Source: Myxococcota bacterium
GTDB lineage: Bacteria; Myxococcota_A; UBA796; GCA-2862545
Length of the DNA stretch: 22,748 nucleotides
Assembly: GCA_039208735.1 (NCBI GenBank)
Contig: JBCCQY010000152.1
Coordinates: 1-22,748 of the forward strand
Direction of reading: 5' to 3'
The notes beneath the pieces are model-generated. The model was not told the DNA's origin. It was given only the letters and a program-made list of their open reading frames with translations, and ran no database searches. This document shows positions 15,222 to 22,748 of the stretch, in pieces. Position numbers and translations under genes: made by a program. Within the stretch, counting starts at the first letter, position 1. Every line of letters begins with the position of its first letter.

Positions 15222-15371
15222 ATGCGCATCTGGAACATCCTGGCTCTCGCGGCTTCCATGGCTTTCGCAGTTGGCACGGTCGGCTGCACCGGTGACGACA
15301 AGACCGACTCGGCCGAAGAGGCGGACGCGGACGCGGATAGCGACGCCGATAGCGACGCGGACGCCGAGTGA
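15222..15371 (+). CDS. 49-aa Asp-rich lipoprotein (absent from the ORF track)
   Basis: GGAG 6 nt before ATG. Translated by hand as MRIWNILALAASMAFAVGTVG-C-TGDDKTDSAEEADADADSDADSDADAE*. A hairpin follows. Confidence 0.8.
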   Translation: MRIWNILALAASMAFAVGTVGCTGDDKTDSAEEADADADSDADSDADAE

Positions 15372-15608: not shown

Positions 15609-15653
15609 ACGTCACTTCTGGGTCCGTGCACCGTCACCGCCTGCCTCTAGTCT
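15609..15653 (+). promoter_or_regulatory. Candidate Pho box plus -10 element of phoX
   Basis: GTCAC (15611), GTCCG (15622) and GTCAC (15633) repeat at an 11-bp period. TAGTCT (15648-53) starts 10 nt after the last unit. Confidence 0.55.
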
Positions 15654-15682
15654 CGTGCGGAACCCAAGGAGTGACACCTCAC

Positions 15683-18013
15683 ATGCGCTCATCTCTTCTC
15701 TTCTTCGCGCTCTTCGGCCTTGCGGCCTGTGAAGGCCCTGCTGGCCCCGCCGGCCCCGAAGGCCCCGCGGGCCCCTCCGGTCCGGCTGGTGAAGACGGAT
15801 CGAACGGCGAGAACGGTGCGAATGGCGAAGACGGCCAGGACGCGACCGGCCCCGTCGCGGACGCGAGCATCCCCGCCTACGTCAAGCGCCTCGTCGACGA
15901 GTACGCGGCGGGCACCATCAATCCCGATCTTCAGTTCCCGCTCGCCGATGCCTGGACCGACACGGTTCGCACCATCGAAGGCATCCAATCGAACGTCGTC
16001 GTGAGCTGGCTCGACCCGATCACGACCGACGGCAGCCTCGTGTGGGGCTCGAACAACGACTACATCGCCTACGTCGGCGACGGCTTCGAGTTTGGCGTGA
16101 CGGACGGCCCCCAGGTCGCCGGCTCCTCCAACTCGGGCTGGATCTGGTCGAACTTCGAGTACATCTCGACCGCCTTCCCGTTCGACACCCCCCGCGTTGG
16201 TGGCGCACCCACCAGCCAGGCCCTCACCCTCGCGCTGTGGATGCAGCAGAACGGTGAGTTGAACTTCGACGTCACCGACGACGCCAACTGGGATCAGGCC
16301 GCGGTCGACACCTACGTCGTGCGCGCGCAGCAGATGCACGGTGGCGCCTGGGTGCGCGTGGTTCAGGATCCGGCCACCAAGGAGTGGACGATCGACCTGA
16401 ACGCGGGCAACGTCCGCTACGACTCGACCAGCGACACGCTTTCGCGGGTCACGGGCGTCGGTGGCTTCACCGGCCGGACCGACATCACCGATGACAACGG
16501 CAACGTCCTTCCCGACGGTGTCGTGCCCGGCATCACGGGTGACTGCTCGGGCGCTCTGTCGCCTTGGGGCACCGTCATCACGGCCGAAGAAAACGTGCAG
16601 TTCTACTACGGCGACCTCGAGGCCGGCTACAGCAGCCAGTTCCTCGACCCGGCGGGCTCGCACAACTTCGTGCCCGGCGCCAACGTGGTCCTCGACACCA
16701 CCGCGGACACCACCAGCACCTTCTCGAAGCACAGCGACCCCAATGTCGGTGCCAAGCCCCGCGACATCTACGGCTACCTGACCGAGATCGACGTCGGTGC
16801 CCCCGCCAGCCTCGCGTACGACAGCGCGACCGGCAACGGCCACATGAAGATCGGTTCGATGGGCCGTGCCCGTTGGGAGAACGCCGCGTTCGTCATGGAC
16901 ACGGACTTCAACCTCATCGACGGCCAGCCCGTGGTCATCTACGGTGGTAACGACCGTCGGTCCGGCCGCGTCTACAAGTGGGTTTCGTCCGCCAACTACA
17001 CCAACGGCATGACGAAGCAGCAGGTCCGCGCGCTCCTCGAGACCGGCCGCACCTACGTCGCGCACTTCGCGGACCTCGACAACAACACGGGCTTCACCGT
17101 GGGTGGTCAGGACCCGATCGACCAGGCCGGCCGCCTCGGCACCGGTACCTGGATCGAGATGAGCATCAACAACACCACCGACACCCCGCCGAACTTCGGC
17201 GCGGCTGGCCTCGTGAACCCCGCCAATGCCATGACGGTCGGCGCGGCGCTTCAGGACGTCGACTACAACAACATCGGTGGCTTCGCGAGCGACGACGACG
17301 TCCTCCGCGCCCTCTACACCGCGGCGAACAAGCTCGGCATCAAGGAGCTCAACCGCCCCGAAGACGTCGAATGGAACCCCTTCGACCAGCTGCTCTACAT
17401 CGCGTTCACCGGCCACACGGATGACACCGGCCTCGACGAGAACGGCGTTCTCGCGACGAGCCGTGGCGGCGCCAACCCGCCCAACGTCAACGGTGACAAC
17501 CGCCGCGAGCCCCACAATGGCACGCTCATGAGCCTCCGCGAAGGCGATCAGGCCAACCCGGCCGCCTCGTCGACCTTCGAGTTCTTCGTCTTCGGCGAAG
17601 ACACCAACAGCGCGCCCACGCGCGTCGCAACCGGTGTTGCGGCTGATGCGAATGGTGTGTTCTCGTGGCGCGCCATCGACAACATCATGATCGACACCGA
17701 CGGCGGCGTCTGGTTCGGCACCGACGGCAACCCCGGCGGCAACTCGGGCACCGACTCGCTGTACTACTTCGACAACAATCCGGCGCACGGCGAAGGCCAG
17801 CCCGGCGTCGTGAACCCGACCTACGGCCTCGCCTTCCGCGTTGCCGCCTTCCCGTCGGACTCCGAAGCCACCGGCCCGCACATCGTTCCGGACGGAACCA
17901 CGATCTTCGCGAACGTCCAGCATCCGGGCGAAGACGACTTCTCGACCTTCGCCTCGGGCACGGTCGGCACGCGTCCGCTCTCCTCGATGGTTGCGCTTAC
18001 TCTGAACCAGTAA
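15683..18013 (+). CDS. phoX: PhoX-family (DUF839) alkaline phosphatase, lipoprotein with collagen-like stalk
   Basis: AAGGAG RBS and LAAC lipobox. Motifs NFEY, DCSGALSPWGTVITAEEN, GRARWEN, NRPED, IDN, GTDG, SEATGP and NVQHPGE match the PhoX metal-ligand blocks. Confidence 0.9.
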   Translation: MRSSLLFFALFGLAACEGPAGPAGPEGPAGPSGPAGEDGSNGENGANGEDGQDATGPVADASIPAYVKRLVDEYAAGTINPDLQFPLADAWTDTVRTIEGIQSNVVVSWLDPITTDGSLVWGSNNDYIAYVGDGFEFGVTDGPQVAGSSNSGWIWSNFEYISTAFPFDTPRVGGAPTSQALTLALWMQQNGELNFDVTDDANWDQAAVDTYVVRAQQMHGGAWVRVVQDPATKEWTIDLNAGNVRYDSTSDTLSRVTGVGGFTGRTDITDDNGNVLPDGVVPGITGDCSGALSPWGTVITAEENVQFYYGDLEAGYSSQFLDPAGSHNFVPGANVVLDTTADTTSTFSKHSDPNVGAKPRDIYGYLTEIDVGAPASLAYDSATGNGHMKIGSMGRARWENAAFVMDTDFNLIDGQPVVIYGGNDRRSGRVYKWVSSANYTNGMTKQQVRALLETGRTYVAHFADLDNNTGFTVGGQDPIDQAGRLGTGTWIEMSINNTTDTPPNFGAAGLVNPANAMTVGAALQDVDYNNIGGFASDDDVLRALYTAANKLGIKELNRPEDVEWNPFDQLLYIAFTGHTDDTGLDENGVLATSRGGANPPNVNGDNRREPHNGTLMSLREGDQANPAASSTFEFFVFGEDTNSAPTRVATGVAADANGVFSWRAIDNIMIDTDGGVWFGTDGNPGGNSGTDSLYYFDNNPAHGEGQPGVVNPTYGLAFRVAAFPSDSEATGPHIVPDGTTIFANVQHPGEDDFSTFASGTVGTRPLSSMVALTLNQ
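15734..15841 (+). repeat. Collagen-like (Gly-X-Y)12 coding repeat
   Basis: GPA GPA GPE GPA GPS GPA GED GSN GEN GAN GED GQD, directly after the lipidated Cys-Glu. Confidence 0.9.
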
Positions 18014-18074
18014 CCAGCTTGCAGGAGCGTAAGCGACGAAAGCTGGCCGCGTAGGCCTGCAGGCGCGCAGCGCC
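18014..18074. repeat. Two REP-like palindromes related to the terminal tandem array
   Basis: 18052-18074 is the exact reverse complement of 22638-22660. 18014-18046 (CCAGCTT..AAGCTGG) encloses a variant of the same core. Confidence 0.75.
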
Positions 18075-18091
18075 ACTGCAATGAGCGAACC

Positions 18092-18120
18092 GCGGGTGCC
18101 CCACGTTGAGGGGCGCCCGC
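18092..18120 (+). terminator. GC-rich hairpin between phoX and the di-haem gene
   Basis: GCGGGTGCCCC-acgttga-GGGGCGCCCGC (one G-U pair), followed by T-rich sequence. Confidence 0.55.
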
Positions 18121-18167
18121 TCTGATTTCGATGTGTTGATTTTTCGGCTCAAACCATGGAGACCAGC

Positions 18168-19859
18168 ATGTTCCGTTTTCTGGCTGCATCCGGTCTAGTT
18201 GTGGCCGCTTCCTGGCTGTCGGCCTGTGGTCAAGCCCCTGAAGAGGTGGCGACACCCCCGTTCGAGGTCTCAACCGCCCCGCCTGCGGACTATGACCCGC
18301 TCGCTCTCGCGCTGCTCGACGACCATCTGACATGGCGCAAAGGGAACCGCGAAGCTTCGATTCCCGTCATGTGCTACACGGAGACGGCCGGCACCTCCAA
18401 TCCGTGCTGGGTCTGTCACACCCAAGGCAATCCCCCGGTGGCCTGGTACGACGCGAACCTGCAGCTGACCTACGCTTTTAGCGACGAAGCGCTGACCAAC
18501 AAGTGGCAAAACCTCTTCGAGGACCGCAGTGCGCGTGTGGCACAAATCTCGGATGAGGCGATTCTCGACTACATCCGGGTTGACAACTACACGCCGCTGA
18601 AGACCGCGATGGAAGCGCGCGGCGAGGAATATCCCGGCTACGTCCCCGATTTGGACTTCTCGAAGGGTTTCGACGGCGAAGGGTTCGCCCGCGATGGCAG
18701 TGGGTGGCGGGCACTTCGCTACAAGCCGTTCTTGGGTACGTTCTGGCCCACCAACGGCAACACCGATGACGTCATGATTCGGCTCCCCGAAAAGTTCCGG
18801 ACCACAACGGAACTGTACAAGATCAACCTGGCGATTCTCGAGCATGTGATCACCCTCGATCCGCGAAATCTGCAGTACAAGACCGCCACGCGTGAAGTCG
18901 AGCCCATCAGCGAAGTCGTGGCGGGCTTCGATCTCGACGGAGATGGCGAACTCGAACCCTCGATCACCACGATTGTCGGGGTGCCGCCTCACTACGCCGG
19001 GGACGCAGCGGACGTCAAAGCGGCGGGCTTCACGTACCCAGAGGGCGTGGAGTACTTGCATTCGGTTCGCTACGTGGATCCGGACGCCCCCAACTTGCTG
19101 TCCGAACGGATGAAGGAGCTGCGCTACTCCTCGAACTACACCGCCATCCCCGTTGACCGTCGCTACTCGCTGCACGAAAAAGAGCAGGACGAGCGGGAAC
19201 TTGGCAAGTTGCCCAAGTACTCGGGCTCGGCGAAATCGGGGATGTCAGGGTTTGCGGTCTGGAAATTCCAGGGCTTCATCGAGGACGAAAACGGTTGGCT
19301 GCGCTTGCAGAACCACGAAGAGACACGGTTTTGCATGGGATGCCACGGAGCGCTTGGCGTCAACGTGGACGGTACGTTCACTCTGTCGCGCAAGCTACCG
19401 GGAGCCGAAGGCTGGAAGTACCAGGATCTACGTGGGATTCAGGACGCCCCACAAGCAGGGCACGCCGACCCCGAGTACCTGACCTACTTCGCTCGCAACC
19501 GTGGGGCCGATGAGCTTCGTGCCAACGACGAGATGCTTGAGCGGTTCTTCGAAGAAAGCGATGGCCTTTACGAGCCCAAGGAGGCGGAAGTGCGTCGGGC
19601 CGCGATTGGGGGCGACAAGGACCTCGCCTGGCTCCTCACGCCTTCGCCCGAGCGCGCCCTCGCCTTGAACAAGGCCTATCGGGTCATCGTGGAAGATCAG
19701 GACTTCGTCCACGGCCGCGACGCAACGATTACCCCACCGGCCAACGTGCACCGCACCATCGAGAATGGCAGCACCGAGAATGGGGGCACCGGCCTGTTCT
19801 TCGATGACGGCAAGCTCACCCTCGATTGGTCCACGGGATCGGTCGCCAATGACGGTTAA
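18168..19859 (+). CDS. Uncharacterised lipoprotein with two c-type haem motifs
   Basis: GGAG before ATG 18168 and LSAC lipobox. CWVCH (18405-18419), CMGCH (19332-19346) and a DLDGDGELE Ca-binding-like loop. Confidence 0.8.
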   Translation: MFRFLAASGLVVAASWLSACGQAPEEVATPPFEVSTAPPADYDPLALALLDDHLTWRKGNREASIPVMCYTETAGTSNPCWVCHTQGNPPVAWYDANLQLTYAFSDEALTNKWQNLFEDRSARVAQISDEAILDYIRVDNYTPLKTAMEARGEEYPGYVPDLDFSKGFDGEGFARDGSGWRALRYKPFLGTFWPTNGNTDDVMIRLPEKFRTTTELYKINLAILEHVITLDPRNLQYKTATREVEPISEVVAGFDLDGDGELEPSITTIVGVPPHYAGDAADVKAAGFTYPEGVEYLHSVRYVDPDAPNLLSERMKELRYSSNYTAIPVDRRYSLHEKEQDERELGKLPKYSGSAKSGMSGFAVWKFQGFIEDENGWLRLQNHEETRFCMGCHGALGVNVDGTFTLSRKLPGAEGWKYQDLRGIQDAPQAGHADPEYLTYFARNRGADELRANDEMLERFFEESDGLYEPKEAEVRRAAIGGDKDLAWLLTPSPERALALNKAYRVIVEDQDFVHGRDATITPPANVHRTIENGSTENGGTGLFFDDGKLTLDWSTGSVANDG

Positions 19860-21109
19860 GCGGGCGGCCAGTCGAGCGTAACGATGAGGCCGCCGTCTTC
19901 ATGATTGGCAAGACGGACGGCCCCGTCATGTAGATCGACGACCTGCTTCACGATCATGAGCCCGAGCCCGAGTCCCGTCGGGCTCTGGGCCTCGTCTCCT
20001 CGGACAAAGGGGTCGAAAATGGTAGCAAGCTTTTCGGAGTCGATGCCGGGCCCGTGGTCGCGGACGGTAACCCGAGGGCCGTCGAGGAGGATCTCCACAG
20101 GACCCTCGGGCGCGTGCCGGCGGACGTTCTTCAACACGTTCGCCACTGCGCGCGTAGCGAGTTCAGGATCGACAAGCACCGTCGCCCCTTGTCCGATCAC
20201 GGTGGTCCGGGACGGGTCGAGGTCCGACAGCGTTTGAGCCTCGGTCACCAAGGCGGACAGGGACATCGGCTTGGGATCCAGCCGGAAGCCGCCGAGCTGG
20301 AGCCGCGACAAGGTGACCAGTTCACCAACGAGGCGGTTGATTTCGGCCAGATCGGCCCCAAGATCATCGATCCGTGGATGGGCCCCGATCTCGTCCTCAA
20401 GCAGCTCAAGCCGTAGCCCCATGCGCGACAATGGGGTGCGAATCTCGTGGCTCACCCCAGCGACGAGCTGTCGGTCGGCCCGGGTGAGCGCGTCGAGGCG
20501 CTCCGTCATGCGATGAAAAGCCTGGGCAACCTGCTGAAGTTCCGGTGGACCGTCTTCGGGAATCCGATGGTCCAGATCGCCATCGGCCACCCGACCCATG
20601 GCCTGCAAGGCGGTGTTCAGAGGCCGGAGGCTCGCGCGGACCACCCATCCGCCCACGACCACCACCAGCAACACGCCGCCAAAGAGGGCCAGCCCGAGGT
20701 TCTGGCGAGGACGTTCAAGGTCCAGATCACGACGTACCACCACCCAGCCCCGGTCCGTCCGAATGTGCACCCGCTCACGGGGGCCTTGACGGTAGCGAAT
20801 TTCGCGGCCGTCGCGCAGCACCTTCACGACGGGCTTTGGACCTCGCAGCCATCGGGGAGGGGGCCCTTCGCCGGCTCGGAACGCAGGCCGAAGGTGAACT
20901 TCGAGGCCCATCCGTCGTCCGACACGATCGGGAGGGACCCCTTGCTCAACCTGGTCGGCGACGTAGATGGCCTGGTCCAGATAGGCGTCGAACACCTGGT
21001 CATTGAACGGACCGAGCACGCCACGCCCGGTAGTGAGGAAGCCAAGGGCGGCCGTCGCGACCACAACAAAGGCAATGCCTAAGACCAAACGCCATGACAG
21101 CGGCATCAT
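19856..21109 (-). CDS. Membrane sensor histidine kinase (2 TM, HAMP, HisKA, HATPase), CpxA-like
   Basis: Two TM segments, HAMP (RPL..GDLDHRIP..ELQQVAQAF), SHEIRTPL, RDHGPGI and GLGLGL. Confidence 0.93.
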   Translation of the reverse strand: MMPLSWRLVLGIAFVVVATAALGFLTTGRGVLGPFNDQVFDAYLDQAIYVADQVEQGVPPDRVGRRMGLEVHLRPAFRAGEGPPPRWLRGPKPVVKVLRDGREIRYRQGPRERVHIRTDRGWVVVRRDLDLERPRQNLGLALFGGVLLVVVVGGWVVRASLRPLNTALQAMGRVADGDLDHRIPEDGPPELQQVAQAFHRMTERLDALTRADRQLVAGVSHEIRTPLSRMGLRLELLEDEIGAHPRIDDLGADLAEINRLVGELVTLSRLQLGGFRLDPKPMSLSALVTEAQTLSDLDPSRTTVIGQGATVLVDPELATRAVANVLKNVRRHAPEGPVEILLDGPRVTVRDHGPGIDSEKLATIFDPFVRGDEAQSPTGLGLGLMIVKQVVDLHDGAVRLANHEDGGLIVTLDWPPA

Positions 21110-21804
21110 TCCTCCGCGTCGGGGCGTTGGGGCACCGAGTAGCCGACCCCGCGCACCGTCTTGATGAAGCGGGGGGTTCGGGAATCTTCGCCGAGTTTGC
21201 GGCGTAGGTGGCTGATGTGGACGTCGACGGAGCGATCGAACGAGGCGTAGTCTTCCCCCCGCGCCAACTCCATGAGGCGGTCGCGAGGGACCACGCGACC
21301 GGCGCGTTCCACGAGCACCCGAAGGATCTCGAATTCGGTGGTGGTGAGTTCGATGGAAACGCCGTCGAGGATCACCTGACGTCGGTCGGGGTCCACGACG
21401 AGTCCTCCCGCGCGCAGGGTCTGGCCTGAAGTTGGCGGAGGACCGTGGGTGCGGCGAAGTACGGCCTGCAATCGCGCGACCAGTTCCCTCGCATTGAACG
21501 GCTTGGGCAAGTAGTCATCCGCGCCGAGCTCGAGCCCTACGATGCGATCGACGTCGTCGCCTCGCGCGGTGAGCATGATCACAGGCACCTGACTCGTTGC
21601 GCGCAGCCCTCGTAGAACCCCGATGCCATCGAGCCCAGGGAGCATCACGTCGAGGATGACCGCGTCAAACTCGGGTCGTTGAGCTGCTTCGAGGCCTGAA
21701 GGGCCATCGGCCGCCGTGTGCACATCGAACCCACGACTCCCGAGGTATTCGGCGAGGAGTTCCCGAAGGCCAGGATCGTCGTCGATGACGAGCACACGGT
21801 GCAT
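21106..21804 (-). CDS. OmpR-family response regulator, CpxR-like
   Basis: IDDD, LDVMLP, MLTA, GADDYLPKPF and wHTH DRSVDVHISHLRRKL..IKTVRGVGY. Confidence 0.96.
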   Translation of the reverse strand: MHRVLVIDDDPGLRELLAEYLGSRGFDVHTAADGPSGLEAAQRPEFDAVILDVMLPGLDGIGVLRGLRATSQVPVIMLTARGDDVDRIVGLELGADDYLPKPFNARELVARLQAVLRRTHGPPPTSGQTLRAGGLVVDPDRRQVILDGVSIELTTTEFEILRVLVERAGRVVPRDRLMELARGEDYASFDRSVDVHISHLRRKLGEDSRTPRFIKTVRGVGYSVPQRPDAEE

Positions 21805-21813
21805 GGCGTTGCC

Positions 21814-22335
21814 CTAGAGTGTGGTTGGAGCGTGACGACCGCGACGCCCGCGGCCCCGGCGCTCGGCGGCGTGCTGCTCGATGGTGGTCACCCACTGGGT
21901 GCGCTGGTCATCGGACAGGGTGGCGTGGAACGCCAAGATCTGGTCGAGCGCCTCGTGAGCGGCCTCAGGAGCCTTGCCCCGCGGGGTATCGTCGATGGCC
22001 GCGTGCAGGGCCGCCGCATCGGGTGTGGACTTGGCCAGTTCGTTCAGGATGAGGGCGCGCTTCTGCTTGCGAGCCTCGTGATGCGCCTCGCGCGCTTCAG
22101 GCGTGGGACGGTTTTCAGGGCGCGGATGCACACCCTCATGGCCCTTCCGGGTCGGCAGGGTCGCGACCATCTCGTCGAGCTGAGCCTGCTGGGTCTCGGT
22201 CAGCTCTACCGATTCCAGGGACTTCACCAGCCCACGAAGCGGGCCGCGGGGGCCACGGGGACCGTCCTGGGCAAAGGCGAGAGGGGCTGCGGCGGCGAGG
22301 CCGAGCGTGGCGACGATGAGGAGTCGGCGAATCAT
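21814..22335 (-). CDS. Periplasmic Spy/CpxP-like accessory protein
   Basis: GGAGG RBS, signal peptide ending AFA-Q, LTxxQ-like motifs LTETQQ and LSDDQR, and a His/Arg-rich composition. First gene of the RR-HK operon. Confidence 0.75.
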   Translation of the reverse strand: MIRRLLIVATLGLAAAAPLAFAQDGPRGPRGPLRGLVKSLESVELTETQQAQLDEMVATLPTRKGHEGVHPRPENRPTPEAREAHHEARKQKRALILNELAKSTPDAAALHAAIDDTPRGKAPEAAHEALDQILAFHATLSDDQRTQWVTTIEQHAAERRGRGRRGRHAPTTL

Positions 22336-22500: not shown

Positions 22501-22748
22501 CGCTGGCCTTCGGCGCTGCGCGCCTGCAGGGCCTAGGCGGTTCATCGTGCAGGTTCGAACAACCACTGGCCTTCGGCGCTGCGCGCCTGCAGGGCCTAGG
22601 CGGTTCATCGTGCAGGTTCGAACAACCGCTGGCCTTCGGCGCTGCGCGCCTGCAGGCCTAGGCGGTTCATCGTGCAGGTTCGAACAACCGCTGGCCTTCG
22701 GCGCTGCGCGCCTGCAGGGCCTAGGCGGTTCATCGTGCAGGTTCGAAC
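22501..22748. repeat. Tandem array of a 63-bp palindromic unit, about 4 copies, truncated by the window end
   Basis: Units start at 22501, 22564, 22627 and 22689. Copy 2 has one substitution and copy 3 a 1-bp deletion. Confidence 0.97.

Follow-up and report, generated by a model that had tools for sequence, protein, structure and literature searches.

What does a di-haem c-type lipoprotein do beside a secreted phosphatase? The question is raised by a window of 22,748 nt (positions 1 to 22,748 of contig JBCCQY010000152.1 in the Myxococcota bacterium assembly GCA_039208735.1, hereafter the source genome), in which a preliminary description had pointed to two co-oriented lipoprotein genes 154 nt apart. 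Both genes are real, each with a ribosome-binding site and a lipobox (Cys16 and Cys20, respectively); the first encodes a PhoX-family phosphatase and the second a member of Aq_1262 (PF27085), a Pfam family without a characterised member. The system is real and conserved, and its di-haem architecture is uncharacterised. Across genomes, a phosphatase almost always accompanies the haem protein, whereas PhoX of the general secretory (Sec) type can occur without it, and the interpretation first put forward, a haem partner for PhoX in phosphorus scavenging, is as a whole partly supported.

The phoX gene (15683..18013, + strand) begins at ATG 15683, with AAGGAG 10 nt upstream, and ends with the stop at 18013. 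Its 776-residue product matches Pfam PhoX (PF05787) at E 3.7e-48 (165 bits against a cut-off of 24) and Pseudomonas fluorescens PhoX (PDB 3zwu) at E 2e-21. In the alignment to the latter, 9/9 active-site positions are kept, Cys288 included: E159, C288, E303, E399, D424, R558, E560, D666, and E728 correspond to E90, C179, E194, E273, D292, R385, E387, D479, and E532, which we take to be the Fe, Ca, and substrate ligands of the P. fluorescens enzyme. Judged by these matches, the product is a PhoX-family phosphatase, as originally proposed, with predicted phosphomonoesterase activity. It differs from P. fluorescens PhoX, which bears a twin-arginine translocation (Tat) signal, in being a Sec-type lipoprotein (lipobox Cys16, no twin-arginine) with large inserts and a collagen-like tether (linker residues 18–52). 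The source genome holds four PhoX loci and one copy of the Aq_1262 haem gene.

The haem gene (18168..19859, + strand, as phoX) begins at ATG 18168 behind a GGAG and encodes 563 residues, with CWVCH at positions 80–84 and CMGCH at 389–393. The two CxxCH motifs, recognised at the outset, are near-invariant: among 237 homologues the second is present in 237/237 and the first in 235/237 (the remaining 2 being gaps). The protein, first described as belonging to no characterised cytochrome family, carries the precomputed label PF27085 (assignment at Atlas 0.98, TM score 0.90), as do all 120 homologues among the matches listed; the labelled family is itself uncharacterised. A homologue search returned 2344 proteins at E ≤ 0.001 among 7998 scored, with names pointing to Myxococcota, Planctomycetota, Gammaproteobacteria, and others. 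No match was found in NCBIfam, PDB sequences, or the local Pfam copy, from which the PF27085 model is absent. A search of the main texts of open-access papers found no paper naming PF27085 or aq_1262 and, by title, nothing on a phoX/Aq_1262 pair under PhoX with P460 or DUF839 with cytochrome. Cys69, present in 231/237 homologues (5 gaps, 1 Gly), forms with haem site 1 (C80, C83, H84) a conserved segment at 18372..18419 (+ strand). Position 298 is His in 227 of the 237 and Gln in 9, and Glu317, Arg319, Trp365, Glu372, Arg379, Glu385, and Asp401 are identical in 237/237. No Met is conserved across the set. Among the conserved residues, only Cys69 and His298 could serve as sixth ligands or as distal catalytic groups. 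With conserved CxxCH motifs, an export signal, and cytochrome c assembly genes in the source genome (3 PF01578 matches), the protein has the marks of a c-type cytochrome with predicted covalent haem.

Linkage to phosphatases was surveyed in 66 genome loci and the 80 best of 588 metagenome loci, sets that favour close relatives and repeat some genera, and in two less biased order-wide gammaproteobacterial samples, from which the 60 best loci were fetched (two repeat earlier loci). A phosphatase gene is adjacent to the Aq_1262 gene in 55/66 genome loci; directly upstream lie PhoX of the window's clade (39), other PhoX (4), a PF04185 phosphoesterase (11), PhoD (1), or none (11). The metagenome set gives 57/80 (PhoX 46, PF04185 6, purple-acid/metallophosphoesterase 2, choice-of-anchor I 2, PhoA 1, none 23), and 17 of the 23 misses have <1 kb of upstream sequence. 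The family occurs in 37/121 and 38/301 genomes of the two order samples, where PhoX adjoins the haem gene in 56/60 loci and PhoA stands on the other side in 4. Some PhoX is present in 36/37 carriers of the first sample versus 27/84 non-carriers, counts in which kin are not independent. Aq_1262 is also found fused to PhoX (P0273, P0290) and to a phosphoesterase (P0185), as well as to TolB-like and cytochrome d1-type propellers. Rare linkage of homologues to phoX or phosphorus genes had been named as the observation that would tell against a functional pairing; all three sets of loci, together with the three phosphatase fusions, show the opposite, and chance neighbourhood was rejected.

The partner phosphatases belong mostly to three PhoX clades and otherwise to phosphoesterase, PhoD, purple-acid-like, choice-of-anchor I, and PhoA types. 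Their visible N-termini, judged by pattern and eye, are of the Sec or lipoprotein type, which bears out the early view of a Sec-exported PhoX. On a FastTree tree of 92 rows, counting only loci that have a partner, partner types group together (11 changes vs 47 when shuffled), haem-protein clades track PhoX clades, and PhoX has been replaced by another phosphatase 5 times. The partner of the Aq_1262 protein changes fold yet stays a phosphatase. Seen from the phosphatase side, no Aq_1262 or two-CxxCH open reading frame (ORF) lies within ~4 kb at any of 17 canonical PhoX loci (0/17; 12 flagged by a twin-arginine pattern) or at the three other PhoX loci of the source genome. In the window's own phylum (301 genomes, with few candidates scored per genome, so that counts are low bounds), 4/4 genomes with the window's PhoX clade have an adjacent haem gene.

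Several loci show further architectures. In P0130 and P0141, the fusion of Aq_1262 to a cytochrome d1-type (NirN/NirF-like) propeller suggests a general redox module, while a clade of P0162 and P0274–P0290 carries an extra CxxCH followed by a TolB-like PD40 propeller behind the Aq_1262 domain, with P0290 adding PhoX in front. Second Aq_1262-like genes, tandem or adjacent, occur at L003:5644-9722 and L209, and a second match in L137. Some members end in S-layer-like or dockerin-like tails. Upstream of the haem gene in L126:3-5801 lies a 1933-residue protein in which PhoX, 5'-nucleotidase, and choice-of-anchor I domains are joined, whereas the haem gene of L010, L019, and L131 has no phosphatase neighbour and precedes a lipoprotein of 810–850 residues without a Pfam match. 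Cation-efflux/SPFH genes behind the haem gene (L024, L061, L216) and an MntP-like gene (L046) hint at a possible metal-handling link. Among PhoX proteins, one clade has Asp for the Cys ligand and another Lys for the active-site Arg (L011, L170, L174–L176, L180, P0273).

What kind of protein surrounds the haems? The AlphaFold model (pLDDT 90) gave nothing at E ≤ 0.001 in a Foldseek search against the PDB. A fold search against 48161 chains returned P460 or c'-beta chains in the top 5 of 6 rows (Z 5.0–3.6 over 123–137 residues, model range ~150–415), and in a second search all 12 rows came from the P460/c'-beta family, with Z of 3.6–5.1 over both. PF16694 was matched at haem 2 in 9/30 proteins scanned, always weakly and under cut-off. 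Profile comparison (hhalign) with the P460/c'-beta type was middling (40%, E 3e-4), and comparison with a single c'-beta sequence was uninformative. The haem 2 domain is predicted from these weak but consistent matches (Z ~5) to be a cytochrome P460/c'-beta-like beta-sheet, the core of which (19035..19346, + strand) comprises a YPxG strand with His298, the invariant Glu317 and Arg319, and haem site 2 (C389, C392, H393). Against the known structures (PDB 6hiu, 9hrk, 7s5o, 6hih, 2je3; PF16694), 129–134 residues align at a root-mean-square deviation of 3.3–3.6 Å and Z ~5, and the predicted fold shares with them a beta-sheet followed by CxxCH as well as YPxG and GW-x-x-GF strands. Those proteins are mono-haem dimers of ~140 residues, in contrast to a di-haem protein of 560 residues with the domain over residues 150–415, and they have Lys or Phe near the cross-link position, where the haem protein has His.

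Phe61 of Methylococcus c'-beta is the reported equivalent of the P460 cross-link Lys70 (PMC11928373, in its available portion). It lies five residues past the YPxG glycine, and the same count in the haem protein leads to His298 (hhalign shifts by one). The cross-linking Lys is absent from the matching position (His 227/237, Gln 9/237), and the neighbours are Leu and Ser/Thr, with no Lys; the protein is therefore not a cross-linked P460, an identity ruled out on this ground. Neither a PF03150 nor a bCcP/MauG match was found by sequence, and the bCcP/MauG/BthA fold is not among the fold-search rows; the predicted beta nature of the haem 2 domain argues against the two-domain helical di-haem fold of that group. 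Around haem 1, residues 40–151 folded alone reached pLDDT 46, and that model was not used.

The region upstream of phoX bears on when the pair would be made. A Pho-box-like promoter (15611..15653, + strand) consists of GTCAC at 15611, GTCCG at 15622, and GTCAC at 15633, at 11-bp spacing, followed after 10 nt by a -10-like TAGTCT, so that 11-bp direct repeats end 10 nt before the -10 element, in what we take to be the geometry of the Escherichia coli phoA promoter. The full pattern of three half-sites plus TAGTCT is unique in the source genome. The core GTCAY-N10-NANNNT, chosen after viewing these sequences so that its enrichment is somewhat inflated, occurs upstream of 10/22 de-duplicated phoX genes of the clade versus 0.17 in shuffles, with a background of 16/1838 upstream regions in the source genome. 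The core is matched in 2/8 gammaproteobacterial upstream regions, and a further 3 of the 8 contain 11-bp GTCA/GACA repeats. A sigma-70 scan found no promoter. The Pho box of the preliminary description holds as a Pho-box-like element, with the caveat of a post hoc pattern. The source genome has a cluster of phoU, a PhoB-like regulator, and a kinase on C176; pstC was not found in its 93% complete assembly, though phoU and the PhoB-like regulator are present, and its PstS-like matches are too weak for use as a control on the Pho box.

Between the two genes (folding z -2.84) lies an 11-bp GC-rich hairpin with a weak U-tract (18092..18120, + strand), possibly a partial terminator or messenger RNA stabiliser. 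It had been taken to leave co-transcription in doubt; the hairpin and its 11 pairs are real, but the doubt does not fit the clade, in which the median gap between phoX and haem gene over 75 loci is 4 nt (≤30 nt in 56/75, with starts picked by rule), so that co-transcription is the norm. The hairpin may lower the level of the haem gene, as would suit a catalytic helper. Judged from sequence, phoX and the haem gene likely form a phosphate-starvation operon under putative PhoB control.

Two published pairings resemble this one. In Flavobacterium, phoX is reported to be always co-operonic with a MauG-like gene, to be inactive alone in Pseudomonas putida, and perhaps to need that gene (PMC8812569), and both genes are induced on phosphate depletion (PMC8115612), as far as the available portions of these reports go. 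The earlier statement that PhoX has no established redox partner calls for a correction, since the MauG-like Fjoh_2477 has already been proposed as one in the first of these papers (PMC8812569, same portion). In the Flavobacterium johnsoniae pair (fjoh_2478 and fjoh_2477), too, PhoX is a lipoprotein and shares its operon with a c-type haem protein; both genes are induced there by phosphate limitation, and a helper role is proposed. In the present pair, the partner is Aq_1262 rather than PF03150. In Burkholderia, the gene for the di-haem peroxidase BthA is always beside that for a putative purple acid phosphatase, PhosA, both go up anaerobically, and the function is given as unknown in the part of the report available (PMC6405878). 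The likeness lies in a di-haem c protein that has a secreted metallophosphatase as its constant neighbour (PMC6405878, in the same part); BthA differs in its bCcP/MauG fold and His-Tyr haem, whereas Aq_1262 has a predicted P460-like domain and additional conserved Cys and His residues and is partnered mostly by PhoX. By analogy, the phoX/Aq_1262 pair may work like the MauG-like/PhoX and BthA/PhosA pairs while belonging to neither family.

The reading we favour, at close to an even chance, is that the haem protein is a convergent oxidant working outside the cytoplasm to activate the phosphatase or maintain it; it is favoured because the haem protein goes with particular Sec-type clades, is found fused to them, and has a parallel in the two published pairings. 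Lipid-anchored PhoX would be paired with the Aq_1262 lipoprotein as an oxidising helper outside the cytoplasm, one haem taking up peroxide or oxygen equivalents and the other relaying electrons. Together, the haems would oxidise Fe(II) to Fe(III) in, or re-oxidise, the metal centre of a phosphatase exported by Sec before it folds, a service most useful at low oxygen. Haem 2 is predicted to lie in a P460/c'-beta-like sheet, where His298 would fall close to the position of the cross-linking lysine of P460, with an invariant Arg in the vicinity; peroxidase-like activity is reported for a c'-beta with a distal Arg (PMC11928373, available text). Aq_1262 would then add a third answer, independent in structure, to the task that Fjoh_2477 and BthA are suspected of performing.

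Several observations weigh against an oxidising helper of PhoX. One Aq_1262 locus has PhoA, a Zn/Mg enzyme, as its only phosphatase partner, and 17 loci and one fusion pair the family with PF04185 phosphoesterases, enzymes described in the available part of PMC9837106 as using a single divalent metal, with Ser or Thr as the nucleophile. Asp stands at the Cys-ligand position in the PhoX-B clade, which is partnered with the haem protein and in one case fused to it. Two homologues are fused to cytochrome d1-type propellers and not to a phosphatase, and L126 shows phosphorus-scavenging enzymes joined to one another with no maturation link. The resemblance to P460 is weak (Z 5.0–5.1; hhalign 40%), with the register of His298 good to +/- one. 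An intact Aq_1262 or two-CxxCH neighbour was found at 0/23 other Sec-type PhoX-like loci (one small fragment), 17 of which lie in 15 genomes without an Aq_1262 match; the haem protein is hence not a general requirement of Sec-type PhoX, and an obligate maturase of all Sec PhoX was rejected. A role specific to the PhoX Cys ligand was rejected on the strength of the PhoX-B clade; the ligand mentioned at the outset is not the key feature. The tie to the PhoX iron centre first put forward (oxidation, loading, or maintenance) needs qualifying, since some partners are phosphatases that have no di-iron centre; this mechanism and the one offered beside it, oxidative release of phosphorus from substrates that PhoX cannot hydrolyse, are both candidates. 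The haem partner for Sec-exported PhoX keeps its linkage and fusions, set against the many Sec-type PhoX-like genes without such a neighbour.

The changing partner could also be read from the other side, in what is the main rival to the favoured reading. Five or more switches from PhoX to unrelated folds (at least 5 on the tree, partnerless loci left out) would suit a di-haem protein that is itself the phosphorus-scavenging enzyme, carrying out a two-electron oxidation of phosphite, hypophosphite, phosphonate, or thiophosphate, with Cys69 as catalytic haem ligand, and clustered with phosphatases through a shared Pho response. A Cys plays this part in TsdA and SoxA. Two haems fit a two-electron step, many invariant Arg and Lys residues suit an oxyanion site (R205, K316, R319, R379, R408), and the phosphite oxidisers of many bacteria are unidentified according to the available portion of PMC12704751. 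We consider this unlikely, if far from negligible: co-regulation alone does not explain why canonical Tat PhoX is avoided (0/17) and particular Sec-type clades are tracked, no recurring ptx, htx, or phn genes were seen in the neighbour clusters (no search by those families was made), and the fold searches gave no TsdA/SoxA match, though the relevant part of the model was barely tested.

A fold-independent choice of partner would also fit a Pho-induced peroxidase that clears H2O2 near iron-containing phosphatases and leaves the enzyme itself untouched. The fusions and translational coupling suggest a closer tie to the phosphatase, and Aq_1262 is frequent (37/121 genomes) in an order presumably of largely low-oxygen lifestyle. 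In the available parts of their reports, BthA turns over H2O2 (PMC6405878) and a c'-beta with a distal Arg is peroxidase-like (PMC11928373), while bthA goes up anaerobically (PMC6405878); such a guard appears rather improbable. Very improbable, in our estimate, is a role as an electron carrier at the cell surface or as a sensor of phosphate or redox state, for instance in Fe(III) mineral reduction that frees bound phosphate. Cys69 and His298 could complete two six-coordinate haems (His/Cys and His/His), and the lipoprotein location and S-layer-like or dockerin-like tails of some members would fit, but the loci show no recurring porin, quinol oxidase, or multihaem partner, and dozens of invariant non-haem residues look more enzyme-like.

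The surroundings of the pair hold further features. On the - strand at 19856-22335, genes for a CpxP/Spy-like protein, an OmpR-family regulator, and a HAMP kinase converge on the haem gene, the stop of the kinase overlapping that of the haem gene. Regulation by these two-component genes was rejected because they look Cpx/OmpR-like, with their CpxP-like gene, and do not recur as a set beside homologues. Just upstream of the phoX promoter, a 49-codon ORF (15222-15371, + strand) encodes a signal of the lipoprotein type and a tail of Asp/Ala/Ser repeats. A GC-rich repeat of 63 bp is present in four copies (97% alike) at 22501-22748, where it runs off the contig end.

In soil and sea, few phosphatases are as common as PhoX, which is regarded as an enzyme that acts alone and is limited by iron. 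Were entire PhoX clades to depend on a haem oxidant, activity would be lower than gene counts suggest, failures of heterologous PhoX expression would be explained, and phosphorus release would be tied to redox state. Should the maturation reading be true, three unrelated di-haem solutions would reveal an unrecognised oxidative step in phosphatase biogenesis. The Aq_1262 family would, if its predicted fold is right, extend the P460/c'-beta fold to large di-haem proteins. It may, at somewhat less than an even chance, be a new di-haem enzyme class that has a P460-type domain as its base and His/Cys as ligands of the second haem, and which either matures the iron centre of Sec-exported phosphatases or serves as a widespread periplasmic oxidase for reduced phosphorus, filling the gap left by rare PtxD. 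The pair offers a direct test of a question raised by two papers: the job of the di-haem proteins that stand beside secreted phosphatases.

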